DNA of 64,000 nucleotides from a virus (IMGVR_UViG_3300006117_000001:1559-65558), one strand, 5' to 3'; counted from the first letter of the stretch, positions 24,626-47,123 are shown. A program made the numbers and translations. The notes: generated from the letters alone by a model not told the origin.

Positions 24626-24850
24626 TTAGTAGAAATTTCCGCCGCCGATGTCATTTAAGTTCTTATCTGGTCCAACTTTAGAAGATTTAACCTTGTTTTG
24701 GTTTAAAACTGCGTTATTTGAACGCTTGCTGCCAGATGTTCCTTGGTCAATTGTTTTTTCGCCAGGTCCGCCAGCATTTCCTGGTGTTCCAGTCATTTTG
24801 TATGTCTTACGGAAACCTAATTCGCCGCCGTCTTGTGGGTTTTTTGCCAT
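24626..24850 (-). CDS. Small basic protein
   Basis: 74 aa, coupled to the portal stop. Confidence 0.5.
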   Translation of the reverse strand: MAKNPQDGGELGFRKTYKMTGTPGNAGGPGEKTIDQGTSGSKRSNNAVLNQNKVKSSKVGPDKNLNDIGGGNFY

Positions 24851-27693
24851 TATTGTGCTCCTGTAGGGGGTGTTTGTTGTGATTCTGGTTGTTGAGTTGC
24901 TTGGTTTTGTTCTTGAAACGATTGTTGCTGCATTTGTTGTTCGTGTTGTTGTTGAGCTAGAGCAGCATCATGTTGTTGCTGAGCTTGTTGCGCCACTTGA
25001 TCTGCTTGAGCCTTAAATGTGGCTTGTTGCAACGCAATACCATGCTGGCGGATATCTTGATCGGCTGCTTGAACCGCATCAATTGCAGACAAATTCTGTT
25101 CATGCTCAAGCTGGGCTTGTTGCTGATCCATTTGCGCGCCAGCTGTAATCATAGCCACACGCTCTTTTGCTGCGTTGTTGATATTGGCCATAGCAATATC
25201 GGTAGCATTACGTTGGTTGTCAATGCTGGTTTGTGTTGTGTATTTAGCCTGTAGTTCTGCAACTTTTTGCTGTAATTCTGCAACTTTAAGTTGATAGTTT
25301 TGTTGAGCTTGTTGCAATTCTGCTTGTAATTTAGCTTGGGCTTCTTGTGTTTTGCGTTGTGTTTCGGCCATTTGCGTTTTAATAATTGCAGCAGAGGTTG
25401 GATCGGCCAATGCGGCATTTTGTTGCTGTTGCTGTTGAGCTTGAGCAACTTTTTGTGCCAACGCTTGAATTTGTTGTACATATGGGCCAAGATCTTGTTG
25501 TGAGTCTTGGTTTACCATTTGGGATGCCAAAGCCAAAGCTTGTTGGGCCGCTTGATCCAATGGTTTTTCTTGATGCAATTCCAATGTATCGCGCCCACCA
25601 GCTGCTTGCGCAACATACCCGCGCATAGATTGCAAGTAATGCAGTGTTAAATGTTGTTTAAGGTGTTCTAAAGCATGAGGAGCAAAAGTAGGCCCAATAA
25701 CAGGGTTGCCACCATAAGCTGGGTTATTTGCATATTCGAGGTGAATTTTAATGTGGGCAATATGGTCTTGATCTGGATATGCTGCGGCGGGTCTACCCAT
25801 GGTCATAGAAACGTTTTCTAATGCTGGGTTAGACTCATTAGCACCTAACGGATTTGGCAATATTTCTTCTGCGTCTGGAACTTTAAGTTGTTTTAAAACA
25901 CGTTTGTAAACTGCTTGAACGTTAAACATCCCTGGAGGCGCGGATGTTGCCATTTGTAACAAGGCTTGGTTTTGAGCAAGACGTTGTGTTTCAGAAAAAA
26001 TGTTAGGATCTGATACAGGTCGAATGTCATTGTTATAAGCAAAGTCACGAACTTCAATTTCTTCGCCGGACTGATTGTCCATTTCCTGCAAATACCAATG
26101 ATTGAGTCGCGAAATAATTTTAAGCGACATTGCTTGACTGCGGTGCAGGCGAGCATGAATACTAGAAAATACTTTAGCACCTTGTTCAATAAGGGCTTGG
26201 GTTGTGCCAACAGGCATTTGGCTGTTAGCTTCAGAAATCTTTTCTTCTGCAGTAGTAACAACGCCTTTAGCTGCGTTTGTCAACCAACCAAGCAAATCAA
26301 ACAATACTGATGATGGAGGATTGAACGGCATTGGCATTGCAATCTTGCGAACATCATCGACCCCCGGACCGGCTTCAACTTCGACTACTTGAGTTGGTTC
26401 GATCCTGTCAGATTGCCCACTAACTCGTCCAGTTTTGAGTTTAAGTAATGTCTGAGAGTTGTTGATATGAGCAGCATCAAGCAAAGCACGTAGAGCGCCA
26501 GTGAGAGCAGCAGAGAGACCGCCAATAAGATGGGGCAAGCCAATAGCATAAGCACCGCGCCAAGGAATGAATTTGAATTCAACATACCAATCCAGTTTTT
26601 CGAGTTTCTCATCATTCGCTTCCCAGTTACGATACAAGGCCAACACTTTGTTGCTGGTCTCATCAATAATTAAAATATACGGCGCACGTTTTCCATCGGT
26701 AAGGTCATCATCTTCTAAACGTAAAAAGCAAGTGATTTCGTAAATTCTACGCAAACCGTCAATATTTTTAGAAGGCTCTTCTTTGCCTTCAATTTTTGCG
26801 TTGGCTTTTTCAGATTGTGTTTGGTCTGTTAAAGGAGCATCTGAAGTATATGCTGCGTTTTCCAAATCACGGTAAAATCCAGAATCAATACGTTGTTGAT
26901 ACGTATCTTCTGTAATGTCTTGTTGCTCAGCTACTCGCTGAGATGTGTAAAAGTTTGTTGTGGAATACGGCAGGATAATATTATCAATTGGTACCCATTC
27001 ACAAGTTGGCCTACGCTGTTCGTCATCATAGCGCCATTTTAAAAATTGTGATCCGCCAAGGGGAAGCTGTGTTAACAACTGTTCCATTTCATCGCGGTAT
27101 TCTGGAACTTGTTCTGTCAATTGCCAATTTAAGAAATTAACTTTACGGTTAGAAACTTCTAACTTGCTTAAATTGTCATTACCTTTAATATTTGATTTGA
27201 CAATGCCATCTGATGGCAATAATTCTTTGGTAGAACTTGCGGCAAAATCAACACAAGCTTCTGCCATAACAGGGTGTACTACTTTTGATGCACCGTCAAA
27301 TGTTGCGCCACCAGGGGCGTCTTTTCCAAGTCCTGTACGGCGCAGTCCTTCTTCGTACTGTTTGTCACGCTGACTACGTGCTTCTTTATCAACGTCGATG
27401 TAATCTAAATATTCATTTGCCAAAGAGTCTAAAGTAGATTCGTCTAGCTCTTCTGCCAAATTGGAATAAAATTCTGGATTTTTAAGCGGGCTTTGTTTTT
27501 CTTGGAAATTGACAATTACTGAACCATCTTCAAGTTCAATAACTTCTTGCTCGACATCTTCAGGATCTAACCCTAGGGCTTCCTCATAGGCATCCATTTC
27601 AGCATCTTGCTGTTTAGCCTGGTCGATATCGTCCTCTCGCTCTAAACCTGGCAGATTTGCGCCGTTTTGGATTGGTAATATTGGATTTGCCAT
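24850..27693 (-). CDS. Portal protein with Gln-rich C-terminal coiled coil
   Basis: 947 aa; FYSNLAE, GASKVVHP..AEA, PVGTT.ALIEQG, PVSDPN and QDH.AHI motifs; follows terL. Confidence 0.85.
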   Translation of the reverse strand: MANPILPIQNGANLPGLEREDDIDQAKQQDAEMDAYEEALGLDPEDVEQEVIELEDGSVIVNFQEKQSPLKNPEFYSNLAEELDESTLDSLANEYLDYIDVDKEARSQRDKQYEEGLRRTGLGKDAPGGATFDGASKVVHPVMAEACVDFAASSTKELLPSDGIVKSNIKGNDNLSKLEVSNRKVNFLNWQLTEQVPEYRDEMEQLLTQLPLGGSQFLKWRYDDEQRRPTCEWVPIDNIILPYSTTNFYTSQRVAEQQDITEDTYQQRIDSGFYRDLENAAYTSDAPLTDQTQSEKANAKIEGKEEPSKNIDGLRRIYEITCFLRLEDDDLTDGKRAPYILIIDETSNKVLALYRNWEANDEKLEKLDWYVEFKFIPWRGAYAIGLPHLIGGLSAALTGALRALLDAAHINNSQTLLKLKTGRVSGQSDRIEPTQVVEVEAGPGVDDVRKIAMPMPFNPPSSVLFDLLGWLTNAAKGVVTTAEEKISEANSQMPVGTTQALIEQGAKVFSSIHARLHRSQAMSLKIISRLNHWYLQEMDNQSGEEIEVRDFAYNNDIRPVSDPNIFSETQRLAQNQALLQMATSAPPGMFNVQAVYKRVLKQLKVPDAEEILPNPLGANESNPALENVSMTMGRPAAAYPDQDHIAHIKIHLEYANNPAYGGNPVIGPTFAPHALEHLKQHLTLHYLQSMRGYVAQAAGGRDTLELHQEKPLDQAAQQALALASQMVNQDSQQDLGPYVQQIQALAQKVAQAQQQQQQNAALADPTSAAIIKTQMAETQRKTQEAQAKLQAELQQAQQNYQLKVAELQQKVAELQAKYTTQTSIDNQRNATDIAMANINNAAKERVAMITAGAQMDQQQAQLEHEQNLSAIDAVQAADQDIRQHGIALQQATFKAQADQVAQQAQQQHDAALAQQQHEQQMQQQSFQEQNQATQQPESQQTPPTGAQ

Positions 27694-27732
27694 AAATGAG
27701 ATTAAATAAAAATTGAAAAGGCCCTTATTCTA

Positions 27733-27765
27733 ACTAATACGCTAAAAAGGGATATTCCGCCCTAA
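27733..27765 (-). promoter_or_regulatory. Putative phage late promoter TTAGGGCG-N15-GCGTATTAGT
   Basis: Exact bipartite motif upstream of the portal gene. Confidence 0.75.
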
Positions 27766-27772
27766 TAATTTT

Positions 27773-29218
27773 TTATTGGGCGTAAGGATTTGCAAAACGT
27801 TTACGGGAATCATCATCTGCGTAGTCATAATCCCTTGCTGGCAGGGGGTCAAGTTGTAACCAGCCAGCATCTCTGAGATACCTTAAACCCTGAGAAAGGG
27901 CGTCCACATAGTCATCATGCCCTCCAGCTTCGGGAAAAGAGCACACTTGGCGCAAAAAGCGTTTTGTCCAGCTAGCAAACTCCCCTTTTTGGTTTGGGTC
28001 TTCTGGGATAAACACTTTGCCCTTGGCAACAAGCGGGGCCACAATGTTTAAGCGCTGCACCTTGTCAGCTCTGCCAGGGTTGTATCCTTGGACAGGAACT
28101 CCAGCTCCTCTAAGTTCTTGAATAAGAGAAATACCAGCTGATTTATCTTCCATTAAAATTAAATCAGCTTTTCGCCCCTTGCCAAATTCGTTATCTGCTC
28201 CGTAAACAACTTCTTTAAAGTCGTCAATTACTTTTCGGCGCAATTCTGGATAAGAAAGATGTTCATCCCAGCAATCTAACAAGATGGCGCAGACACCGCC
28301 GTCAATTTGTTCAAAAATTCCCCAAACTTCGCAAGCAGTGGGGTCGTTTATAGTTTTTTCGCTAGTGGCCGGATCATAGGAAGCCAATACATATTCCAAA
28401 GTAGGAGTTGGCTTGTTGGCTGGCCACATCTTAAACATTTTGCGTTTGATAATACCCGCAGCTTCTGGGTCAAGGATCTCACCATAAATCTCTTGGCGGC
28501 CAATATCGGTGCCATCGTAGGTTTCTAGCTGTTTAAAAAATGTTTCGGAGAGGTTCGCCCGATTGTCATACGAGGACGCGTTGGCGACAAAGACGTCTCC
28601 ACCGACTTTGCCTTCGTTAAGGTCAACGATAAGCTCTTTTGGCTTTGGCGTGGTGGTAATGATTTGCTGGACTCGTGGAATCCTAGGATCGCGCAAACGG
28701 AGGGTAAACTGTACTCCATCGTATGCTTCGTCAATATACTCAAAGGCGCACAGCTCGTCAAACCAGGCTCCATGATATTGCTTACCACGATAACGTTCTG
28801 GCTCGGAGGCGGGGATTCCTTGAATAAGGGATCCATTGGTAAGGGTAATCTCAAAGAGGGACTTGTTGTAATCTCTGATAAGGCTTTTGGGTATGATATT
28901 GAGAAGGCCGGAGTCTCCTTCGAAACAAGTTGCACGGATATCATTAGAGGTTGGGGCGGTAACAAGCCAGCGAGTGCGGTCAAAGGTAGCAGCCCGAATG
29001 CCAATCCAATGGCTAGCAGTGTGTGTTTTGCCTGATCCACGACCGGCAAGCATAAGAAACGTATCATACTCCCCATCTTCGGGTTCTTTTTGGTGGTCAA
29101 GTGCTTGGGCTTTCCATTTAGCCATCCAAGCCATTAGTTCAAATTTTTCTTTAGGCCAATGTTTACGTTGCTCTAAATACTTCTGTAAAAGTTTGTGTTT
29201 TTCTTGATCTAAAGACAC
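27773..29218 (-). CDS. terL: Terminase large subunit
   Basis: Walker A GRGSGKT, Walker B WFDE, TTTP coupling motif, RNase H-like nuclease (YDPA, EDK, HDDYVDA). Confidence 0.92.
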   Translation of the reverse strand: MSLDQEKHKLLQKYLEQRKHWPKEKFELMAWMAKWKAQALDHQKEPEDGEYDTFLMLAGRGSGKTHTASHWIGIRAATFDRTRWLVTAPTSNDIRATCFEGDSGLLNIIPKSLIRDYNKSLFEITLTNGSLIQGIPASEPERYRGKQYHGAWFDELCAFEYIDEAYDGVQFTLRLRDPRIPRVQQIITTTPKPKELIVDLNEGKVGGDVFVANASSYDNRANLSETFFKQLETYDGTDIGRQEIYGEILDPEAAGIIKRKMFKMWPANKPTPTLEYVLASYDPATSEKTINDPTACEVWGIFEQIDGGVCAILLDCWDEHLSYPELRRKVIDDFKEVVYGADNEFGKGRKADLILMEDKSAGISLIQELRGAGVPVQGYNPGRADKVQRLNIVAPLVAKGKVFIPEDPNQKGEFASWTKRFLRQVCSFPEAGGHDDYVDALSQGLRYLRDAGWLQLDPLPARDYDYADDDSRKRFANPYAQ

Positions 29219-30180
29219 GGAATAAATCCTTCCCCGACTAAAATTGTGTTGTCTTCGCCATCTGTTTCGATGTGAACACAGTTTTGTGGTTCAATTTCAT
29301 AAATTTCCCGAACTAGTCTCCAAGTTTGTCTAACCTTAATAGGTTCGGGGGTTTGTTCTTGCGTTAATTGTAACTTAGTTTTGATAAACAACGTGTAATA
29401 CTTTTTTGTTCTGTCGTATAACATTTTAGTTTTGCAACCCAAAGACTCAGCTAGGTTTTGAACTTGGGTGACGCTGTGTTTAGTCTTCCAAGTAAACCTA
29501 AAAATTTGGTTTTTCTTATTAAACTGCTTGGCTTTACTATGCAAAATCCCACTTAGCAGTTCTTGACGCTGCTCTGGATCAGAAAACAAATAGTTATTGG
29601 GTATTTTTGTTGGAACCAAAGGGATTAAATGTGAAACTACTGTGGGCGTTGTGGTAAACGCCGCTTTTTTATTGGGGATATACCCATGGCTTTTAAACTT
29701 TTCCCTTACAAATTCATCAAAAATTACAGGCGGTTTCAAAGTCCCGTCTTTTTTGCGATTAAAAAACCAAAATCCAAAAATGAAAGGAGGTACTGGTAAG
29801 GTCTGATGGGGAAATTGAATGGCCCCCGTAGTGGGCACCGAGTACACCATGCGATTGTTTCGGTGGGTGAGGGGCGAGTTTACCAATTCTGAGATTGGTG
29901 TGGGTCGTAATGGTCTTCTAAATTTCCTAACTCCCTTGTATTGCCGAACCCTTGCTCGGTATTTTGGAGTTTCTAATGGAAGCTTTAAATGTATATCACC
30001 CGCTACGGTAAGGTGGTCGTGAAACTGCACCTCGTAACAATTTTTGGCTCGGTATTGTTGAGCCAATTTAACTTTAACTGGTTTTCCAGTTCTATCAAAA
30101 ACTATGTCTCCTGCACGAACATCGCAAGCTAGTTTCCAATAATCAAGGGTTAATACCTTCTCTGTTGCCAAAATTGCCAT
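29209..30180 (-). CDS. Free-standing intein-like protein (Hint plus degenerate LAGLIDADG)
   Basis: Hint N-block (GDIVFDRTGKPVKV), PVPPFIFGFW, IPNNYL...R.ELLSGIL, SLG, C-block LVGEGFIPCL-stop; no exteins, no terminal HN. Confidence 0.7.
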   Translation of the reverse strand: MAILATEKVLTLDYWKLACDVRAGDIVFDRTGKPVKVKLAQQYRAKNCYEVQFHDHLTVAGDIHLKLPLETPKYRARVRQYKGVRKFRRPLRPTPISELVNSPLTHRNNRMVYSVPTTGAIQFPHQTLPVPPFIFGFWFFNRKKDGTLKPPVIFDEFVREKFKSHGYIPNKKAAFTTTPTVVSHLIPLVPTKIPNNYLFSDPEQRQELLSGILHSKAKQFNKKNQIFRFTWKTKHSVTQVQNLAESLGCKTKMLYDRTKKYYTLFIKTKLQLTQEQTPEPIKVRQTWRLVREIYEIEPQNCVHIETDGEDNTILVGEGFIPCL

Positions 30181-30451
30181 AAAAGTTTTTTAGGACCCAA
30201 TAGTCCAGCCATTTCCCTAACGGAACGCGTATTTTGTTTTGGATACCCGCTGGTAAATTTTGAATATTGATGGTGTCTTCTGTAAGCTGCAAACGAAACT
30301 GCAAAAACTTACAAGTGTCTTTATCTAATATTTCAGCGGGAACATCTACTATTTCCAGATTGTTTAAGTCGCATACCACAACCCGCAAGCCTTTAAACTC
30401 ACCGATGGCGTTTTCCAACGCACCTTGGATTTGGTATACATAATCATTCAT
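30143..30451 (-). CDS. Hypothetical protein
   Basis: MNDYVYQIQG...; ATG 6 nt after GCGTATTAGT. Confidence 0.55.
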   Translation of the reverse strand: MNDYVYQIQGALENAIGEFKGLRVVVCDLNNLEIVDVPAEILDKDTCKFLQFRLQLTEDTINIQNLPAGIQNKIRVPLGKWLDYWVLKNFYGNFGNREGINP

Positions 30452-30457
30452 ACATTC

Positions 30458-30467
30458 ACTAATACGC
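30458..30467 (-). promoter_or_regulatory. -10-only phage promoter GCGTATTAGT
   Basis: Exact decamer without upstream TTAGGGCG. Confidence 0.6.
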
Positions 30468-30492
30468 ACAATTTTTCAAAAAAAAAAATTTT

Positions 30493-30805
30493 TGCCACAC
30501 TTTGCCACACTTCTGCCACACTTTAAATCGCATTTTTGGGCAAAGTGTGGCAGTAAAAAACCAGTTTAAAATCAAAAGGTTACAAGCGTTTTGCTTAAAA
30601 ATTAAGCACAAATTGCCACACTTTGTTTCGTTTTTTCCAAGTCGATACTCTACTATTCTTTTTTCTTTTTTAAAAAATAAAAATAAAAATAGAAAATAAG
30701 TGTGGAAGTGTGGCAATTAGGGGTTAAGTCTTTGATATATAAGGCTTATTGCATTGCAGCAAAGTGTGGAAGAAGTGTGGCAGAAGTGTGGCAATTGCCA
30801 CACTT
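30493..30805. repeat. Origin-like element copy 1 (TGCCACACTT iterons, AT-rich core, two IHF sites)
   Basis: About 11 iterons in both orientations; A/T core at ~30655-30700; WATCAANNNNTTR at 30570-30582 (+) and 30725-30737 (-). Confidence 0.75.
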
Positions 30806-30964
30806 TCCACATTGTGAAAAAAAAATACACAAACTCATGGTTGCTCAGGGGCCCGGCCGGCAGGGTAGGGGGTACTTTATTTAGGGGTATCGGTTTTTAG
30901 AAAACCCCCCTATAAGCTAAAAAGGAGGGCCATAGCAAATTACCGACCCAGCAACCTGGCAGCC

Positions 30965-31164
30965 AGCCATAGTGAGTACTCACTAACATAGCCAGCCCAG
31001 CCACTTAGCCATAGTGAGTACTCACTAACATAGCTAAGCGCTGCACTCTAGTGAGTAAGCACTCACCTACTTAGGCCAACGTGGCAGCGTGGTGATGTGA
31101 GTACTTACTAACATAGGCCAGACTATCGCGCTGCCATTGTGGTAAGTAAGTGCCTACTAACATA
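30965..31164. repeat. Array of five SlmA-type palindromic sites
   Basis: GTGAGTACTCAC exact at 30972 and 31014; variants at 31055, 31097 and 31146. Confidence 0.7.
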
Positions 31165-31198
31165 ATGGCAGCGTGGCCAGGTTAGAGTGTTGGCTGCG

Positions 31199-31255
31199 TG
31201 CCCTCGTTTGGTGCACTGGCTGAGTGGCAGTTAAGAAGGGCACTGATTTGGTGCA
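31199..31255. promoter_or_regulatory. Two NtrC/Fis-like boxes
   Basis: TGCCCT-N5-GGTGCA (31199) and GGCACT-N5-GGTGCA (31239) versus consensus TGCACC-N5-GGTGCA. Confidence 0.45.
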
Positions 31256-31340
31256 CTGGCTGCGTGGTGATCTAGGCGCGCGTGAGAAGCCTAGGTGCAA
31301 GGTGCACTTGAATAAACAGATTACCCGATTACCTGGCAAC

Positions 31341-31396
31341 CTATTAGGGTTTACCCTATTAGGGTTTTTAGTTTGCAAACCTAGGGTTTATACCTA
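31341..31396. repeat. TAGGGTTT repeats / palindrome TAGGGTTTACCCTA
   Basis: CTATTAGGGTTT at 31341 and 31356; CTAGGGTTT at 31381. Confidence 0.55.
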
Positions 31397-31475
31397 TGTA
31401 TCTATATAGTATTACCCCGTTATATTGTACACATGGCAGCAATTAAGCGGCCATTATATGAGAGGAATTACCATC

Positions 31476-32126
31476 ATGACTATTAAACTAAGTAAGACAA
31501 GCAAACTAGACGGCATTATGTCTTGGTCTTTACAGGCCTTAGATACATGCCCTGGCAGCAAGGCCAAGGACGGCGGCTTAGTAGACGCGTGTCGCGGCTG
31601 CTATGCCACAACCGGCAATTATCGTTTTAAGAATGTCAAAGCGCCGCGCGAATTTAATCGTGAAGACTGGCAGCGTGGCGAATGGGTTAGTGACATGATC
31701 CAGGCCTTAGACTCATCGCGCTATTTTAGATGGTTTGATAGCGGCGACATGTATTCGATTGATTTGGCTAAGAAAATGTTGCAAGTGATGGAGGCAACAC
31801 CATGGGTAAAACATTGGATGCCTACTAGAATGCATAAGTTTGCTAAATTCGCGCCAGTCATTGCCAAAATGGAGGCGCTGCCGAATGTAGTCGTTCGCCG
31901 CTCTTCAGATAGTATAAGCGGCCAAGTAATACCTGGCGCGACATCGTCCACAATCATAAGCGGCCAGGATCAATTGCCAGCCGGCGCGACATTGTGCCGC
32001 GCTTATGAGCATGGCGGCACTTGTAACGGCTGCCGCGCATGTTATGACAAAGCCGCGACAGTCATCGCCTATATGGCGCATGGCAAGAGCATGGCCAAGG
32101 TAATCCGCATAATGGAGGCCGCATAA
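31476..32126 (+). CDS. GP88-family Cys-rich protein (radical-SAM-like fold)
   Basis: TSKL..WSL.A..TCPGS...C.GCYA...FRWFDSGD...HWMPTR...C.GCRAC. Confidence 0.75.
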   Translation: MTIKLSKTSKLDGIMSWSLQALDTCPGSKAKDGGLVDACRGCYATTGNYRFKNVKAPREFNREDWQRGEWVSDMIQALDSSRYFRWFDSGDMYSIDLAKKMLQVMEATPWVKHWMPTRMHKFAKFAPVIAKMEALPNVVVRRSSDSISGQVIPGATSSTIISGQDQLPAGATLCRAYEHGGTCNGCRACYDKAATVIAYMAHGKSMAKVIRIMEAA

Positions 32127-34863
32127 TGTTTATTGTCTTTTATCGTTATCGCGGCGAAGAGTTAAACGCGACATTTAAAACAATACGCAAGGCGAAGCAA
32201 TTCGCCAGGGTTACCGGCGGCAAAATTGAAAGCCGCCTAACTAGTCATATTTGGGGGGTTTAATTATGAGTACATTGCACAAGATCGCTGCCATTCAATT
32301 AAATAGTAAGCGGCCGCCGTCTCATGCGCTTATTATGAGAATGGCCGGGGTTTACCTGGCAGCCGGGCATAAGGCCATGGATATATCTTGGCGCGGCCAG
32401 TCAATAGAATTAACTTATCATGACGCGCGCGGCCAATGGTACGGCCAGGGCATTATTAATAATGAGTACGGCGACAATATTGCAGATGAATTAAACCATA
32501 TTAAACAATTTGTCCTAGATCATTTTCAGATTGTCACTATGGGGGCAAACCATGCTTAAAATTTTATTGTCATACATTGTGGATCTATTAGGGTATATCC
32601 TAATTGCGCTCATATGGTGCGGCGTTATTCTTGCACTATTCGATTGTTTATAGGAGGTTTGATTATGTACTATTGCAACGGGCATTATTTTGACCAGTAC
32701 CAAGAGGCGCGCCGGTATGCTGATTTTCTGTTACGTCATGCCGGCATATATCGCGCTATTTTTACCCGCGCTGAAATAGAGGCGCATAATTTAGAGGGAG
32801 CATTATTATGACTAGATCTATCCAATCAATAGCCGCTCAGGCGCGGCGCGAGGCGCTCAGCGCCGGCTTACCATGCGGCCAATATACCTATTCTGATCCG
32901 CTCAAGATCGAAAATAGATATCAGAGCGAAGGCGGAGCAATACGCGAGCAATATGGATCTATTGCCAATTGGAATGCATGGGAGCGCGTACATGTAAGAG
33001 AGCGCGCAACAGGCCGAACTGTATTTGATAACGAAGTGGCCAAGATTACCGGCATGACATTACACGCAACACCGGCCGAGGTATTGGCCGTTTTAGATCA
33101 ATCTATTTATGAGGTGAAAGCATGATTACATTAGACGAAATGCATATTATTGAAGGCGATACAACGGCCACAACCCAGCAATATTATGAGGCCATACAGA
33201 AAGCTATTAATACTGGTTTATGGGGTATGCAGGGATCATACGGCCGTACAATGATGGCCGCGATTAACGAGGGTTATTGCATGCTCGGTCAAAATGACGC
33301 GCGCGACTATTGGGGTAATTATATACCATCACGCGACCAGGTACAGGCCGGTACAAAGGGATCATTCGATTTTGTTGCGAAGCAATGCGGCGAAGGATGG
33401 GCAGAATATATGAGCGAGGTGAAATAATGAACGCAGATAAAATTAAAGCAATGGTATCGGATCTTAATTATCAGTACTCTAATTTAGTGGAGGCCTCAGT
33501 AGAAGAGGCTTTAGATGAGCGGCCTAATTATGAATGCGACACCATGTTTGCAGAAATTCAAACATTAGTTAAATTGATATATAAAGAATTGGAGGCATGA
33601 TGAAAACTAATTATTCACATTTAGAAATTGCAATAGAGTGCGCATGGCAAATTGGAGATTCCCTTAAAAATTTACCGCGCGCTGAAAGCCGGTGGCTAGT
33701 GGCCGACATTACCAATCGCATTATTGAGGACGGCCTTATTACACCGGAGAGCGAAGATATAGACGAATTAATTGCAGCATGGATTGAGACTAATCTTAAG
33801 GAGACAGTATGATGACTAGGTTAGACGCATTTTGGATTTTATTGGCATTACTTATTACAACGCAGCTAGTATGGTATTTCACTAAATAGGGAGAATAGCA
33901 TGAGAAAATTTAGCAGACAGACAATTGACTTAATGGGAGCATATGCCAGTGGTTATTCATACGGACGTGCTGGCCTGGAATTAAACCAATTATGGGACGA
34001 AGACGAAGAAGGGCATATGTGGGAAGTACTAGGGCATAGCTATGGCATAGAGGATCTTAAAATGTTTGGAAAACTAGAGGGAAAAGTATATGACGCACAC
34101 CATTAAATTTAACTCAATCCATGAGATGCTATTGTGGATTGTTGAAAACAATATTTATGATGTACCTGTAGATCTAACCTTAAAATTAGGAGAATGAACC
34201 ATGCTGCAAGAAATCACTATGCGTCAAATTGACGATTACTTTCAAAAATCAGGTATTAGTGACATTGACGAACTAGGAGCAGTAGATCGTCAGATCAAAG
34301 ACCTAGAAGCTATCAAGGCCAAGTTAAAAGCTAGGATACTATCTAGAGGTACAGGCTTTCACAAGGGCTCAGAATTTATTGCGGAGGTTCAGGAATACGA
34401 TAGAGCAACGATTAGTCCTATCTTGGTTAAAGAGTTTGGTACTACTGATTTTGTGCAGCAAGTAACTCAGGTGCAACATATTAAAGCAGTATTGGTAAAA
34501 CGAATTGACTAATTATCGCTATGCCGTAGTAGATGAGTTTGGTGGGGTAATGCGTAAGTTTGCTAGTAAGATCGAGGCGCAGCCCTACTTAACCCATGGT
34601 ACTAAGCTTATTGCTTTACCTAAGCAACCAAAAACGCAGCCGTATGAAATAGTAGTGCTTACTTTACCCGAGGCCTTAATATGAAATTGATTGGTGGATT
34701 GATTTGTTTTTTAGCGATGTACGGATTTAGTGTACAGGTTACCTTAACTGGTATACTATGGATGTTGTTTGGTATAGTTTTAATTACCATTCCGGCAGTA
34801 TTGGAAGGTTTTATGCGCACTGAACGATTCATTCATAGGAGCAATAAAAGGAATGTCAAGTAA
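32126..34863 (+). other. Cluster of small, tightly coupled early ORFs
   Basis: ORFs at 32126, 32266, 32808, 33122, 33597, 33900, 34201 and 34681 among others, many with GGAG/GAGG RBS; functions unknown. Confidence 0.6.
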
Positions 34864-36533: not shown

Positions 36534-36849
36534 TGCCACACTTTGCCACACTTCTGCCACACTTTAAACCGCATTTTTGGGCAAAGTGTGGCAGTGACAA
36601 AAAGCTTTTAGAATCAAAGAGTTACAGAGGTTTTTTGGTCATTTTGGGTCGAAATTGCCACACTTCCAGTGAAAAAACGCAAGTCGCTATGCCACTCTAT
36701 CTTTTTATTTTTTTTTATTTTTAAAACTAAAATAAGAAAAGAGTGTGGAAGGTGTGGCAATAGTACCCTAAGTGCTTGATATATAAGGATTATTGCACTG
36801 CAGCAAAGTGTGGCAGAAGTGTGGCAGAAGTGTGGCAATTGCCACACTT
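36534..36849. repeat. Origin-like element copy 2
   Basis: Same iteron order as copy 1; IHF consensus at 36612-36624 (+) and 36769-36781 (-); directly upstream of the primase-helicase. Confidence 0.8.
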
Positions 36850-36947
36850 GTAGGACAAATACCTACAAGCCGCTAAAAGTATCTTGTAATATGAAATTGG
36901 TGTATTACCGAACTGCGTATCAGTTCAGGTAAGCAAAGAGGAAGAAG

Positions 36948-39272
36948 ATGTTAGAAAAACCAGCAGCACTACCAGTTAGTTTTGAGAATATCCCGGTAGA
37001 TCTAAAGATGATCCCCAGGTTCTGCCTATGGAAATACACCCTTGTTGGTGAGGGAGACACACAGAAATGGTCTAAACTACCAGTCCAGCCTAGTGGTAAA
37101 GCAGCAAAATCAACCGATCCAGCAACCTGGACAGACTTTTTTACAGCCCAAAAGGCCTATGAGAATGGCAACTTCTCAGGCATAGGCTTTGTCTTTACTG
37201 GCGATGATGACCTCATTGGCGTAGACATTGACGATTGCAGAGACCCTATTAGCGGAGATCTGAATGAGCTAGCTACCAACATCATAGCCAACGTCAAGGG
37301 ATATTGCGAAATCAGTCCCTCAGGTACTGGTGTCAAGATATTTACCAGAGCAAACCTGCAAAATGCCCACGTAGACCACGAAATTGGGTTAGAAGTCTAC
37401 GCAAAATCTCGGTATTTTACCCTCACAGGCCATAAAATAGGCGGTGATCTGCCCAGTGAGCCACAAGACCTCACTGCCCATGTGCCCGCCCGCACACTTA
37501 TCCGTACAAGTTCAGATGATGAGTTTGCTAACTACACACCGCCAGTTGAAGGTTGGGATCTAGCTCGCGTTGACAATGAGCTTTTAAGCCAATTAGACCC
37601 CTCTTGTGGCTACGATGACTGGCTAGCTGTGGGGATGGCCTTATCGCACCAATTTGGAGGCGATATAGAGGCTCTGGAGGCTTGGGATAGCTGGTCTTGT
37701 GAGCATGGGCAGAACCCAAAATACGTAGCTAGCGGAATGAACTCTTGCGCTGCAAAATGGCGCACATTTAAAGGCGGAGGCACCACACTGCGCTCACTGA
37801 TCTTCAAGGTGAATCAAAAAAAGCTCAAAGCTGCCCTTGATGCTGGTGAAATTGTGCTCGACATCTCCAATCCACTAGATCATGCCCGCAAATTTCTACA
37901 ATCCTTGTATGCGATTGAGGGTGGCTTTAAATTAGTACACCATGCCCAAGAGTTTTTTGTCTACACTGGGACACATTACAGCTTTATTGAAGAGGCCACA
38001 GTGCGCTCCCAGGTGTATAAGTTTTTGGATCGCTGCCAAAAACAAGACAAAAAGGGCAATTTAGTCCCATTTAACGCAAATCCTGCGGTGGTTAATGCCG
38101 TAATCGACGCATTAAAGTCGATTGTCCACCTTGCTAATGACCCCAACGGAAGGCCACCAGTTTGGCTAGATGGGTATGCTCAAAACAACCCGCCTGCCAA
38201 CCAGCTTATCAGTATGACTAATGGATTGTTTCAGATGGATCAGTTGGTGCTTTATCCGCACTCACTAGGCTTTTTTACTTACAACTCTCTGCCATTTGAA
38301 TACGACCCACAGGCACAGTGTCCTCACTGGCTCGCTTTCTTAGATGATGTGTGGGGTAATGACATCGAGTCTAAAGAGTTGCTGCAAGAGTATTTTGGAT
38401 ACATTTTGTCCGGCGATACAGCCCAGCAGAAATTTTTGAACGTGATTGGTCCGCGTCGTAGCGGCAAGGGCACTATCAACAAAGTGCTCACCGAACTGCT
38501 TGGTCAGCACAATGTGGTCTCGCCTCAGATGGAAGAGCTTTGCGACACGTTTGGTTTGCAACCTTGGATAGGCAAACAGCTAGCATCATTTACAGATGCG
38601 CGGGTAACAACCAAGAATGGCGCTGGTGTTGTGTCTCAGTTGTTACGCATTGTGGGTGGCGACACAGTGACAGTAAACCGCAAGAACAAAGAGGCTTGGA
38701 GTGGTTACCTACCAACCAGGATCATTGTGTACTCCAATGAGATGTTGCGGCTATCAGAAAACAGTAATGCACTCACAGGCAGGATGTTGGTGCTCACCAT
38801 GACAAACAGCTTTTATGGCAAAGAGGACGTTGGCCTTGCAGACCGCCTGATTGCTGAACTAGCTGGCATTTTTAACTGGGCGTTGCAAGGACATAGCCGC
38901 CGCACCAGTAGAGTGGGTCAGCGTTTTGTGCAGCCAGAGTCTAGCAAGAGCATGGTAGAAGAGATGACTAAGCTGTCTAATCCATTGGCAGAGTTTATTG
39001 AAGACGCCGTTGAGTTTGTAGAGGATCATGAAGTCAATAAGGACGATGTGTTTGCTTGTTATAAACATTGGGCGATTAAAAAGAATCTACACCCTGGCAC
39101 AGAGATGTCCTTTAAAACCCGCTTTACTTCTACAACGCAAGAGTTTAAAGTAAAGACTAACCGCAGACGTACTGCCAATGGATCAGAGTGGACTTATGTG
39201 GGAATTAGGCTCAAAGATAAAGCGCAGGCCTTTGTGGATTCAATCAGTGAGTTTGAGCGTGAAATCTTTTAA
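36948..39272 (+). CDS. Primase-polymerase / PriCT-2 / D5-type SF3 helicase
   Basis: GVDIDDC and EISPSGTG prim-pol motifs; YDDWLAVGMAL; Walker A GPRRSGKGT. Confidence 0.88.
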   Translation: MLEKPAALPVSFENIPVDLKMIPRFCLWKYTLVGEGDTQKWSKLPVQPSGKAAKSTDPATWTDFFTAQKAYENGNFSGIGFVFTGDDDLIGVDIDDCRDPISGDLNELATNIIANVKGYCEISPSGTGVKIFTRANLQNAHVDHEIGLEVYAKSRYFTLTGHKIGGDLPSEPQDLTAHVPARTLIRTSSDDEFANYTPPVEGWDLARVDNELLSQLDPSCGYDDWLAVGMALSHQFGGDIEALEAWDSWSCEHGQNPKYVASGMNSCAAKWRTFKGGGTTLRSLIFKVNQKKLKAALDAGEIVLDISNPLDHARKFLQSLYAIEGGFKLVHHAQEFFVYTGTHYSFIEEATVRSQVYKFLDRCQKQDKKGNLVPFNANPAVVNAVIDALKSIVHLANDPNGRPPVWLDGYAQNNPPANQLISMTNGLFQMDQLVLYPHSLGFFTYNSLPFEYDPQAQCPHWLAFLDDVWGNDIESKELLQEYFGYILSGDTAQQKFLNVIGPRRSGKGTINKVLTELLGQHNVVSPQMEELCDTFGLQPWIGKQLASFTDARVTTKNGAGVVSQLLRIVGGDTVTVNRKNKEAWSGYLPTRIIVYSNEMLRLSENSNALTGRMLVLTMTNSFYGKEDVGLADRLIAELAGIFNWALQGHSRRTSRVGQRFVQPESSKSMVEEMTKLSNPLAEFIEDAVEFVEDHEVNKDDVFACYKHWAIKKNLHPGTEMSFKTRFTSTTQEFKVKTNRRRTANGSEWTYVGIRLKDKAQAFVDSISEFEREIF

Positions 39273-42103
39273 CTTTCGTAAACGCATCAAGCGCAACCAC
39301 TTTACTGTTGTTTTTAAGACAGTAGGTAAGCGCAAAGTTATTATACAAAACGAAAAGTGTATAATAACTTTTCGTTTTAAAATGCAAAAGATCAGAAGAG
39401 CGCATCAAGGTCATCGCAATAAGGTATTTGGTAGTCTTACCCAATTGAGAATGAGACGCATTTACGGAATTAGGCCGACAGTACCGCAGTTAAGGAGATA
39501 GTATGGAGTACAAAGACTTAGCAATAAATGGGTTTACATTTAGGTTTATTAAAGAAGATAATGAGTGGGTGTGCAAGATGCCAACGTGGTTGATTACTGC
39601 CGCAGAGGATATGCTTAGTGCAAATTACAAGAGAGAACAACGGCTGCAACAGCTATTAGATGAGGACAGAGAATGACTAACGAGAACCAAAAGCCAGTGA
39701 CCGATGATTATCGCAACAACTGGGAACAAGTGTTTAAGAAGAGCAACACAACCAAAACAACTGAGCTTGAAGACTACCAAAAACTCGCACAAGAGATTTG
39801 GTTCAAGGACGGCTCATGCACAGGAGGAAAAGCAGAATGAACAATGAACCAGTAGCGTGGATGGATAAAGAAAGCAATATCACCATGATTGGTGGTATTT
39901 ACCCAAAAAAGCTAGAGCAATATTTAAGCGTATTAGAATCTAGGATTATTGCTTTGGAATCCCATCCAGCAAAGACACTAACAGATGAGGAAATAGAGCA
40001 AGTGTGGACTGAGGTAACTTGTCAAGAGCTAAATGTTCCGTACAGTTTTGCTAGAGCAATACTAAGAAAGGCAAGCGAGAAATGAACGCACATGAACTAG
40101 CAGACCTTATTGATACTGGGATATTCCCAGAAGGTACATTGGCCCTTGCCACCAAAATGTTACGCAATCAGGCCAAGGAGATCGAGAGCCTACAGGAGCA
40201 CTTTGACAAGGCGCTGGACTTTCTGACACGCCTTAACACTGGAGGCAAACAGTAATGCTCACTGTCAAGCAGTACTTAGAGATATTTAAGTTCTCAAGCG
40301 TTGACAATCTAAAAAACATCAAGCGCGTGTTGTTTATGTCACATAGCACCGAGGACTTAAAGAACCGGTACGACGCAGTAAAGATTGCGCTAGGTGAAGA
40401 ATGAGCCACGACTACCAAGACATCGAGCAGATCGTCGCATACCTGAACAAGCAAAGTGACGGCGTGGCAAACGTCTACGCCAAGACGGCGAGCATGTTAG
40501 ACTCGTTGTCAAAGGATAGGGCGCGTCTTGAGCAAAGAGTGGTAGACTTGGAGGAGCGTATCAGCAACATGGAGCAGTGGGAGAGGCGCTACCTTGACGT
40601 GATAGAATCACTAAGCCAAGACAGCAAGGCGGCGCTTAAGGAGTCACTTCGCACTTATGACGGGAGACTAGAATGAACGCAAATGAACTAGCTGATGAGC
40701 TGGAAAAATGTATTAGAGATGGTTCAACAGATTTAGTATGCGTTGACCAAGCAGCCACCATGCTACGCCAGCAACAAGCTGAAATAGAGGCATTAAACCA
40801 GCGCATTGAGCGCATGATTGAGAACCAAAGTCATCACGAAGGTATTGCACACGCTGGTGGGTTTGAACAAGGCCATGAGGTAGGACGTCAACTTGGCATG
40901 AAGCAAGAGCGAGCAATGTGGGAACTAGCCGCATCGACACAGGAGATAATGAAATGACTACATTTACCACACAAGACCGGCAAGATGCAGAGCGCACCCC
41001 GCTGAGCGACCAAGAGTTACTTAAAATGGCAGCAGATAAGTTTCATTACACCGAGTACAAACTAGCAATCGAGTTCGCCCGCGCCATTGAACGAGCCCAT
41101 GGAATTGGTGATACGTATCACCAGATGGAGGACTAATGAGCTTCACCATCTACCAACACAACGGACTCAAAGTCATCCAGTGGTTTGCCACAGTTGATGA
41201 GCTGATTGCCAGCATGCTGGCCAACCCTAACGACGCATACCATAGGAATGTATGAAAACCAAAATATATGTATGGTGGATTAAACTACAAGCAAACCACA
41301 TACCTTGGACTAAGCTGTACAAGTACCGAGTGCGTGAGTGGGAAAGTATGAAAGAGACCAATAGAATTCTTAATGGCTTTTGGTTTGGTGACCACAAAAA
41401 CAATTTAGAACAAAAAACAGATTGGGATACTATAAAAGAAATGGTGAAAAATCACAATGACTGAGATCGCCCTATCATTCTTCATCGGCTTTTTGGTTGG
41501 CCTTGTGATGCGTCCAAAAAATAAAGACATCAAAGAGCAAACTGACATCTATAATCGCAAGTACCAAGAGTACGAGACTGAAATTAAGTACTACAAAGAC
41601 CTGTGCAAATGGCACGTAGAGCAAAAGGAAAAGAAATGACTGACGACATCCAGTTTACTATGACATTTGAGAGTAACAACGACGATGGTTCAGCAAACTA
41701 CAAGCTTGACCTAAATGAGTACACTACCAGTAAGTTAGTGGAGATTGGTGTGATTGCGTTACTTAAAGAGCACATTGCCCAAGAGCAAGCTAAAAGAGGC
41801 AACATTTACATTAGAGCAAAAATCTTAATAGGAAAGATCATGGACAAATTAAAAGTAATCAAGCCTGCAATTAAAGAAAAGTCTGGTAAGGTAGTGCCAG
41901 CAAAATCAATCAAAGAAAACCACGATGACATTATCAAGCGCGAAGGTAAAGCAGCTAAGGGAGCTAAGCGTGAGTTTGTGCTGTCAGACAAAACCGTAGC
42001 TACTCGCACCAAAGCAGCCAAGGTAGCAAAGGCAGCCGGTGAGGTAAAGAACCCAGGCAAAAAACTACACAGCCATGAACTACGTAAGGCACTCAAAAAA
42101 TAA
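39244..42103 (+). other. Cluster of small accessory ORFs
   Basis: Many coupled short ORFs (e.g. 39837, 40082, 40401, 40673, 40954, 41252, 41457, 41637). Confidence 0.55.
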
Positions 42104-46972: not shown

Positions 46973-47047
46973 GCCCCGTTAGCACAGCGTTAGTGCAGCA
47001 CTTTTGTAAAGTGAAGGTCGGAAGTTAGAATCTTTCACGGGGCACCA
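46973..47047 (+). tRNA. tRNA-Thr(UGU), slightly atypical
   Basis: Acceptor GCCCCGT/ACGGGGC, anticodon loop TTTGTAA, T-loop TTAGAAT, encoded CCA. Confidence 0.75.
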
Positions 47048-47048
47048 A

Positions 47049-47123
47049 GGGGGATTAGTGATAATGGGAGCACATATGCTTTGCAAGCATGAGGTGGGAG
47101 TTCGATTCTCCCATCCTCCACCA
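47049..47123 (+). tRNA. tRNA-Ala(UGC)
   Basis: Acceptor GGGGGAT/ATCCTCC with G3:U70, anticodon loop TTTGCAA, GTTCGA T-loop, encoded CCA. Confidence 0.9.

Follow-up and report, generated by a model that had tools for sequence, protein, structure and literature searches.

Genomic Context of the Array

The window, meaning the whole stretch of 64,000 nucleotides that was analysed, comprises bases 1559-65558 of a 65,558-bp IMG/VR record of an uncultured freshwater phage. It has a G+C content of 43% and is organised in two divergent arms with a lytic-type make-up, the phage encoding its own primase, helicase, PolA and ribonucleotide reductase. The record carries a 90-bp terminal repeat, which is an assembly overlap, and DNA of the window is contained in sequencing runs from 24 metagenomes, freshwater or other.

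Approximately 1 kb of non-coding DNA separates the late arm, harboring the terminase and portal genes, from the early arm, and within it lies an array of five palindromes that resemble the binding site (SBS) of the bacterial nucleoid-occlusion protein SlmA (Table 1). Beyond the GP88-like gene, the plus-strand early or replication arm encodes a sigma factor, a methyltransferase, a P4-family primase, a helicase, an exonuclease, a ribonucleotide reductase and a PolA-type polymerase. The gene for the large terminase subunit (TerL) seems to be split, with the first ca. 140 residues of the 323-aa ORF matching TerL N-terminal profiles and the 481-aa TerL following next. Caulobacter phage RLK has a similar two-piece TerL annotation, its pieces being without BLAST similarity to the 323-aa ORF. 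The likely small terminase (TerS) lies inside the replication arm, 19 kb from TerL, and a pair of neighbouring tRNA genes for Thr(TGT) and Ala(TGC) occupies 46973-47123.

Several further repeats accompany the array. An iteron element of ca. 320 bp occurs twice in the window at 85% identity, with TGCCACACTT in both orientations around an AT-rich stretch. Its second copy is located directly 5' of the P4-family primase gene (36948-39272), an arrangement of primase and adjoining iterons which we take, by comparison with P4, to resemble an ori/crr pair. Among 80 related contigs, 18 end 1337-1480 nt upstream of TerL, probably because of the iteron element. A DnaA-box pattern is not enriched (9 matches vs 9.9 expected). 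Between the array and the first early gene, the segment 31190-31370 contains TTTGGTGCACTGGCTG twice, TGGCWGCGTG five times and CCTATTAGGGTTT twice, while several relatives have related GTGCRCGTGCAC palindromes ahead of their arrays.

TABLE 1. Positions of the array, its five copies and the surrounding features in the window.
Feature	Coordinates	Strand	Basis or remarks
Late operon	24850-30469	-	begins ca. 500 bp from array
Portal	24850-27693	-	late operon
TerL, 481 aa	27773-29218	-	late operon
orf323, 323 aa, N-terminus TerL-like	29209-30180	-	late operon
orf108, 108 aa	30143-30469	-	late operon
Iteron (TGCCACACTT, 11 copies) and AT-rich element, putative origin-like	30493-30810	.	first of two copies
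G/C-run spacer between array and AT-rich/iteron element	30836-30935	.	same order of elements in two other loci
Array of five SBS-like palindromes, non-coding	30965-31164	.	no ORF of at least 40 aa over 30901-31156
Copy 1, 20-mer CATAGTGAGTACTCACTAAC	30968-30987	.	exact consensus core 30972-30983; 2 mismatches to GTNAGTRAGYRCTYACTNAC, both left outer GT
Copy 2, same 20-mer as copy 1	31010-31029	.	exact core 31014-31025
Copy 3, GTGAGTAAGCACTCACCTAC	31051-31070	.	core 31055-31066; left outer half-site kept; 1 mismatch to 20-bp rule
Copy 4, TGATGTGAGTACTTACTAAC	31093-31112	.	core 31097-31108, 1 mismatch to 12-mer; 3 to 20-bp rule, all left outer
Copy 5, GTAAGTAAGTGCCTACTAAC	31142-31161	.	core 31146-31157; both outer half-sites; 1 mismatch to 20-bp rule
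GP88-like (PF17338/DUF7227), first early gene	31425-32126	+	ca. 260 bp from array
Second copy of iteron/AT-rich element, 10 TGCCACACTT copies	36534-36850	.	upstream of primase gene
Likely small terminase, 131 aa, N-terminal helix-turn-helix	47574-47969	+	weak Sf6-type/small-terminase Pfam matches, E 0.005 and 0.02, below cut-offs

Composition of the Array

The five SBS look-alikes span 30968-31161. The 12-mer GTGAGTACTCAC has only two exact copies in the 65,558-bp record, at 30972 and 31014, with the reversed control pattern giving none. Variants of this core are GTAAGCACTCAC at 31055 (two mismatches), GTGAGTACTTAC at 31097 (one mismatch) and GTAAGTGCCTAC at 31146, the last with four mismatches to the exact consensus but only one to the degenerate SBS rule GTRAGYRCTYAC. 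All of these copies had been listed in the initial annotation and are present as claimed. The sequence likewise bears out its report that TAACATA follows four of the five copies (1, 2, 4 and 5) at start-to-start spacings of 42/41/42/49, and its placing of the array in non-coding DNA, with no ORF of at least 40 aa overlapping 30901-31156. It had also read the spacing as about four helical turns; this phasing is not conserved, as the spacing varies among relatives, with peaks at 22-23, 29, 33, 37-39, 41-45 and 57 bp and a minimum near the 20-24-bp size of a single site.

The signal of the array resides in clustering. Over the whole window, 12-mers at three or fewer mismatches are not enriched (13 vs 18.9 expected from shuffles), while every match with two or fewer mismatches is located inside 30972-31108, and the pattern GT.AG..CT.AC has four matches in the whole record, all within the array. 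Read in a 20-mer frame, all five copies are one to three mismatches from GTNAGTRAGYRCTYACTNAC, with those of copies 1, 2 and 4 all falling in the left outer portion. The outer right half-site TAAC is present in copies 1, 2, 4 and 5, and copies 3 and 5 have the outer left half-site 4 bp out (GTGA-GTAAGC..., GTAA-GTAAGT...). The core bases G, T, A and G are kept in 9 of the 10 half-sites; only copy 5 departs from them, in its right half, with a C at position 9.

Match to the Published SlmA-Binding Site

The SBS consensus 5'-GTGAGTACTCAC-3' was obtained by selection (Tonthat 2011, PMC3020112). According to the same source, G, T, A and G are needed at positions 1, 2, 4 and 5, with any purine accepted at position 3 and any pyrimidine at position 6. 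A consensus oligonucleotide of the 20-bp type, AAGTAAGTGAGCGCTCACTTACGT, is described by Cabre 2015 (PMC4423959), along with the natural site SBS17, which contains GTTAGTGA...TTACTTAC (…GTTAGTGACCATTTACTTAC…). SlmA is reported there to bind the SBS as a dimer of dimers, with 300-400 molecules per cell and 24-52 SBSs (PMC4423959). Going by these two accounts (PMC3020112, PMC4423959), the biological SBS is a 20-bp palindrome with outer GTNA/TNAC half-sites.

In relatives of the window phage, the site is a 20-24-bp palindrome matching the 20-bp E. coli SBS consensus. The consensus of 89 distinct phage sites from the TerL family is aTGTTA-GTGAGTACTCAC-TAACAt; in its 20-bp form, GTTAGTGAGTACTCACTAAC, it is the same as the E. 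coli 20-mer at 16/20 positions, differs only at degenerate positions, and has the same left arm as SBS17. Among 234 distinct phage sites (468 half-sites), gathered by means of a pattern in which positions 1, 2, 4 and 5 are fixed and including loci of which 80 were chosen on a strict 20-mer, 420 half-sites have a purine at position 3 and 461 have a pyrimidine at position 6. The outer GTNA is found in 355/468 half-sites, 80 of the loci having been chosen on outer half-sites. The phage sites show the 12-bp core, the purine and pyrimidine tolerance at positions 3 and 6, and the 20-bp form with outer half-sites.

The two halves of a site vary independently. Left/right pairs at position 6 are distributed as TT 67, TC 57, CT 56 and CC 48 in the 234 sites, the central pair is complementary in 116/234, and position 3 is symmetric in 129/234. 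Hairpin-type covariation is therefore absent and pairing is not kept; going by sequence variation, the pattern is that expected if each half were read separately by one of two protein subunits.

Distribution across Phage Families

A TerL search of IMG/VR returned 419 relatives, of which the best 80, at ca. 85% identity, were kept. Together with contigs from a metagenome-assembled genome (MAG), 41 TerL-family loci extended 2700 nt or more upstream of TerL (38 from IMG/VR and 3 from the MAG). Two or more sites are found in 19 of these, one site in 5 and none in 17, the sites always being located 1.4-2.7 kb upstream of TerL.

The element extends well beyond this family. The 20-mer GTNAGTGAGYRCTCACTNAC has matches in at least 120 IMG/VR stretches vs 1 for the reversed control. 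Among these at least 120 stretches, 80 loci were compared, with G+C contents of 0.36-0.66; only 12 of the 80 belong to the TerL family of the window, while 28 belong to a family of ca. 37 kb with a P22-like portal and a different TerL, and others have a TerL that is only 31-36% identical, or none in view. Across all loci, the sites form 66 distinct clusters, each with 2-6 members, and 54 occur singly; each of five whole genomes compared has exactly one site cluster. A GP88-like gene of 61-65% identity is the first early gene beside arrays in the P22-portal family (L106:4314-5021 and ca. 9 other loci). Its presence beside arrays in an otherwise unrelated family suggests that the control region and the GP88-like gene travel together.

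No such array was found in the cultured phages and prophages that were checked (by blastn, and in RLK, the spring-water phage and DSL-LC05). Megablast of 29000-33000 against cultured phages gave no match, blastn of two array copies against them gave chance spacer matches only (E=7), and tblastn of TerL, DNA polymerase and primase detected no close cultured relative. No array adjoins the terminase genes of Caulobacter phage RLK (41% TerL identity) or of a spring-water phage (55%). DSL-LC05, which among named phages is nearest to the P22-portal family (portal 76% identical; host only predicted, as Gammaproteobacteria), has no array. Prophage-type TerL relatives of 31-45% identity occur in 18/401 genomes of the phylum, with no SBS nearby in 10 loci, and a contig of genome G506, from the same order as the candidate host described below, has a 72%-identical family-B TerL without an array. 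Tandem SBS pairs were found in 0/401 phylum and 0/151 family genomes sampled, less than one being expected by chance; their absence from the sampled cellular genomes is consistent with arrays being tolerated only on phage DNA.

Candidate Host and Its SlmA

In a search of one genome each from 185,579 species, the TerL family was found in a single MAG, designated 'uncultured beta proteobacterium', on three contigs, none of which contains an SBS site. The MAG holds further contigs of the phage family and is contaminated-looking, at 3.1 Mb vs about 2 Mb in its relatives; given this excess of ca. 1 Mb, the presence of the phage contigs probably reflects co-binning and not integration. A prophage in a relative of the MAG (G707:C30:526-6000, L241) shares a 42-nt stretch with window 40750-40791 at 95% identity (E 1.8e-10), the match falling in an 85-aa ORF of the prophage and the ORF 40673-40957 of the window. 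The same prophage contains an integrase, small ORFs and an SbcC-like ORF. The Thr and Ala tRNAs of the window are 74-79% similar to those of the candidate lineage, which is uninformative.

The MAG encodes SlmA, with the NF007015 model scoring 277 bits against a cut-off of 120. Matches above this cut-off are present in 19/21 genomes comprising the MAG and its relatives, in 58/301 phylum genomes sampled and in 1/14 controls, E. coli alone, while the fragmented genome G506 gave no SlmA match, a result too weak to use either way. The candidate-host SlmA aligns with V. cholerae SlmA (PDB 4gct) at E 3.5e-43, with an identical recognition-helix motif, VSEAALYRHF. By alignment reading, the residues corresponding to V. 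cholerae T31, E43 and F63 are kept, roles for T31 and E43 being described in PMC5519180. The same reading places a Leu at the position of E. coli R73 and V. cholerae R71, an arginine reported as needed for FtsZ antagonism (PMC5519180, PMC3573117), and the action of the candidate-host SlmA on FtsZ may therefore differ.

Five genomes of the candidate lineage show no enrichment of SBS-type 12-mers (strict pattern 12 vs 5 for the control, looser pattern 11 vs 27), and the 20-mer at two or fewer mismatches gives only 21 matches vs 9 for the control, orthologous repeats included. Several SBS-type sites of the lineage persist at orthologous positions with altered central bases. The host is probably an SlmA-encoding freshwater betaproteobacterium, the links from sequence being MAG co-binning and one 42-nt match, both of them weak.

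Candidate Ligands of the Array

The array is a real, widespread element and very probably a protein-binding array, with a specificity equal to that of SlmA. Five SBS-bearing phage records, four of them at least 96% complete, were added to the record of the window. The initial annotation had recognised no TetR-family gene in the window, and the profile search agrees: TetR_N (PF00440) is absent at E<=1 from 6/6 SBS-bearing phage records, that of the window included, with the control positive in 14/14 cellular genomes. An operator for a phage repressor of TetR type was rejected as 0/6 phage records encode the domain.

A centromere of the sopC/parS type was also considered, F sopC consisting of tandem 43-bp units, each with an inverted repeat. 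It was rejected, as ParB_N (PF02195) has no match at E<=1 in the record and the phage has a lytic make-up. Common to all five whole SBS-bearing genomes are only a helicase, a VRR-NUC-like protein and an exonuclease, with an SSB-like protein and a polymerase common to four of the five. None of the proteins common to the whole genomes is a sequence-specific duplex binder. With no TetR, ParB or common sequence-specific binder in the phages, a host protein is the simplest common ligand, and SlmA is the host protein whose published specificity fits the sites.

One alternative is a phage-encoded ligand other than SlmA, such as a small terminase, a late-gene regulator or an unrecognised binder, the likeness to the SBS being convergence or coincidence. 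Position counts in its favour. In 56/80 of the GTNAGTGAGYRCTCACTNAC loci compared (among at least 120), the site is located less than 2.6 kb 5' of an ORF of a TerL cluster, at a median of 806 bp, while 17/80 end too near the site to tell and 7/80 show no TerL. Beside the terminase operon is where TerS recognition repeats, pac/cos sites or late-promoter operators are typically located. As to specificity, the pac/cosB pattern is not found. By BLAST, the small ORFs that separate the array from TerL form at least five clusters, of which one is a recognised small terminase (phrog_1482). The putative helix-turn-helix segments of these ORFs, including the recognition helices, differ, so that one 20-mer adjoins at least five unrelated TerS-like clusters. 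The likely TerS of the window has no similarity to the small-terminase-like ORFs of other SBS loci.

Variation within the TerL family is further cited for a phage ligand, beginning with the 17/41 loci that have enough flank and no site. Six of these 17 relatives (L020, L021, L027, L031, L036 and L068) carry a different palindrome, GCGTATATACGC, at the array position (region 4200-4330 in L020), in two copies separated by 92 bp, as would be expected for an exchangeable pair of site and protein. The SBS-negative relatives also have their own early module, with an AAA ATPase and a SprT-like 202-aa ORF (L020:3082-3690), the latter present in 12/17 SBS-negative vs 0/24 SBS-positive loci. The GP88-like gene also adjoins arrays in a second family, but was rejected as ligand since G032, a complete SBS-bearing genome, has no homologue, and orf108 and orf323 were rejected because their identity does not track site presence. 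Coincidence gains some plausibility from scale, as scanning very many windows can yield a 1-in-4096 palindrome match by chance; it would, however, have to cover the outer half-sites and the rules at positions 3 and 6 as well. With no sequence-specific binder shared by the five whole genomes, and neither TetR nor ParB domain among them, a phage-encoded ligand is considered unlikely.

A second alternative retains SlmA as the ligand and gives it a mainly local role, as a repressor or activator of the late (terminase/portal) operon or as an architectural factor in packaging. One variant, for example, is a copy-number timer, in which replication would titrate SlmA off and release late transcription. 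Host factors are known in such settings, IHF being the architectural host factor at lambda cos in packaging initiation. The position of the site upstream of TerL in 56/80 loci speaks for a local role, as do the arrays of the P22-portal family, which lie 120-250 bp upstream of the first late gene, and the recurring order of array, G/C-rich run, AT-rich run and first late gene, seen in the window and two other loci. Action of SlmA at promoters has precedents. In V. cholerae it is reported to activate the chb promoter from an SBS located 167 bp ahead of the start site (Klancher 2017, PMC5519180), while an SBS placed inside a promoter is described as repressing a reporter (PMC5519180, PMC3573117).

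Against this, a simple sigma-70 and terminator scan gave nothing convincing beside the array and was uninformative; some 500 bp, including an origin-like element, separate the window array from the first late ORF; and up to 6 tandem high-affinity sites are more than an operator typically needs. As the main function, a local role of this kind is judged distinctly unlikely, and it is compatible with an effect on division. A pure division-effector model does not predict a site 5' of the terminase operon, and the constant place upstream of the late/terminase operon means that SlmA occupancy may be coupled to late transcription or packaging. With that position unexplained by division and SlmA acting at promoters elsewhere, the array may have a role in late-gene timing or packaging.

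A structural or replication element, be it a cruciform or hairpin in the DNA, a series of RNA hairpins or the iterons of an origin initiator, is highly improbable: perfect palindromes can extrude as hairpins and the array lies ca. 150 bp from the iteron/AT-rich origin-like element, but the half-sites vary independently as described above, the Rfam search gave sub-threshold eukaryotic miRNA look-alikes only and no family over threshold, the second origin-like copy (36534-36850) is without an SBS array, and the separate TGCCACACTT family fits iterons better.

Proposed Mechanism

The palindromes of the array are probably binding sites of the host SlmA, a reading to which we assign a probability of roughly 0.65 from sequence evidence, counting together the two roles that SlmA could have there. 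The initial annotation, which took them for SlmA-binding-site look-alikes, gains from the match to the 20-bp E. coli site, the SlmA-like variation, the spread over several phage families that have no TetR protein of their own, and the candidate host lineage with SlmA.

The main role envisaged for the array is division arrest via SlmA, which is put a little short of even odds. Lytic, self-replicating phage DNA would carry five high-affinity sites for the host nucleoid-occlusion protein SlmA, a member of the TetR family. A single incoming phage genome would have little effect. During phage replication each new genome copy would add five SBSs, and the few hundred SlmA molecules of the cell would load onto phage DNA spread through the cytoplasm. 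SBS-activated SlmA would then break down FtsZ polymers everywhere, division would stop, and no septum would close over the phage DNA. In E. coli, tandem SBSs on a multicopy plasmid are reported to block division lethally and in dependence on SlmA (PMC3573117), and a replicating phage genome with five near-consensus SBSs would be the natural analogue of such a plasmid.

A wider generalisation can be offered more tentatively, with the odds leaning against it: SBS arrays may represent a widespread class of DNA effectors, in phages of bacteria that have SlmA, that capture and activate SlmA, leading to arrest or, by titration of SlmA, to late expression coupled to copy number, and moved as a short non-coding cassette between unrelated families. 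A full-text literature search found no paper connecting SlmA sites with phage genomes, the SlmA papers it found being without the terms 'phage genome' or 'phage DNA'.

Comparison with Known Systems

The chromosomal SBSs of E. coli and V. cholerae share with the phage sites the 12-bp core, the 20-bp layout in which GTNA/TNAC form the outer half-sites, and the tolerance at positions 3 and 6. They are described as single and dispersed, with 24-52 in E. coli and 79 putative ones in V. cholerae (PMC3020112, PMC5519180, PMC4423959), and are mostly imperfect and excluded from the terminus region. Phage DNA, in contrast, has 1-6 near-consensus sites at a pitch of 22-66 bp, whereas tandem pairs are found in 0/552 cellular genomes sampled.

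The closest experimental parallel is pHC534 (pUC-2xSBS, Cho and Bernhardt), which like the phage array places tandem SBSs on a high-copy replicon, and for which a lethal, SlmA-dependent global block of Z-ring assembly is reported (PMC3573117). pHC534 is a synthetic laboratory construct in E. coli with induced SlmA, whereas the phage arrays are natural, contain up to 6 sites at a fixed genomic position and are known from sequence alone.

Short-repeat arrays in non-coding DNA beside terminase genes are also familiar from terminase recognition, as in the lambda cosB R sites with IHF and the pac repeats of SPP1 and P1. Those repeats co-vary with their own TerS, while the SBS palindrome is common to phages with unrelated TerS-like proteins, and the window array differs in having the likely TerS gene 19 kb away. 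Phage protein inhibitors of FtsZ include lambda Kil and T7 gp0.4. The presumed outcome, arrest of host division during infection, would be the same for the array; Kil and gp0.4 are proteins acting on FtsZ or ZipA, while the array, if the proposal is true, would be DNA that activates a host inhibitor.

Implications

Known phage division blocks are proteins, and a cis-acting DNA array that activates a host inhibitor would, if true, be a different takeover device, one that would escape gene-centred annotation. Because the sites match the E. coli consensus, the proposal is directly testable with existing E. coli reagents, namely purified SlmA, slmA deletion strains and ZapA-GFP, and the plasmid experiment showing the principle is already published. 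The distribution raises the question of why the arrays nearly always flank the late/terminase operon. If true, the proposal would extend SlmA biology to the Betaproteobacteria, and for uncultured freshwater phages of a very abundant group it would provide a marker of the host that can be read from sequence.
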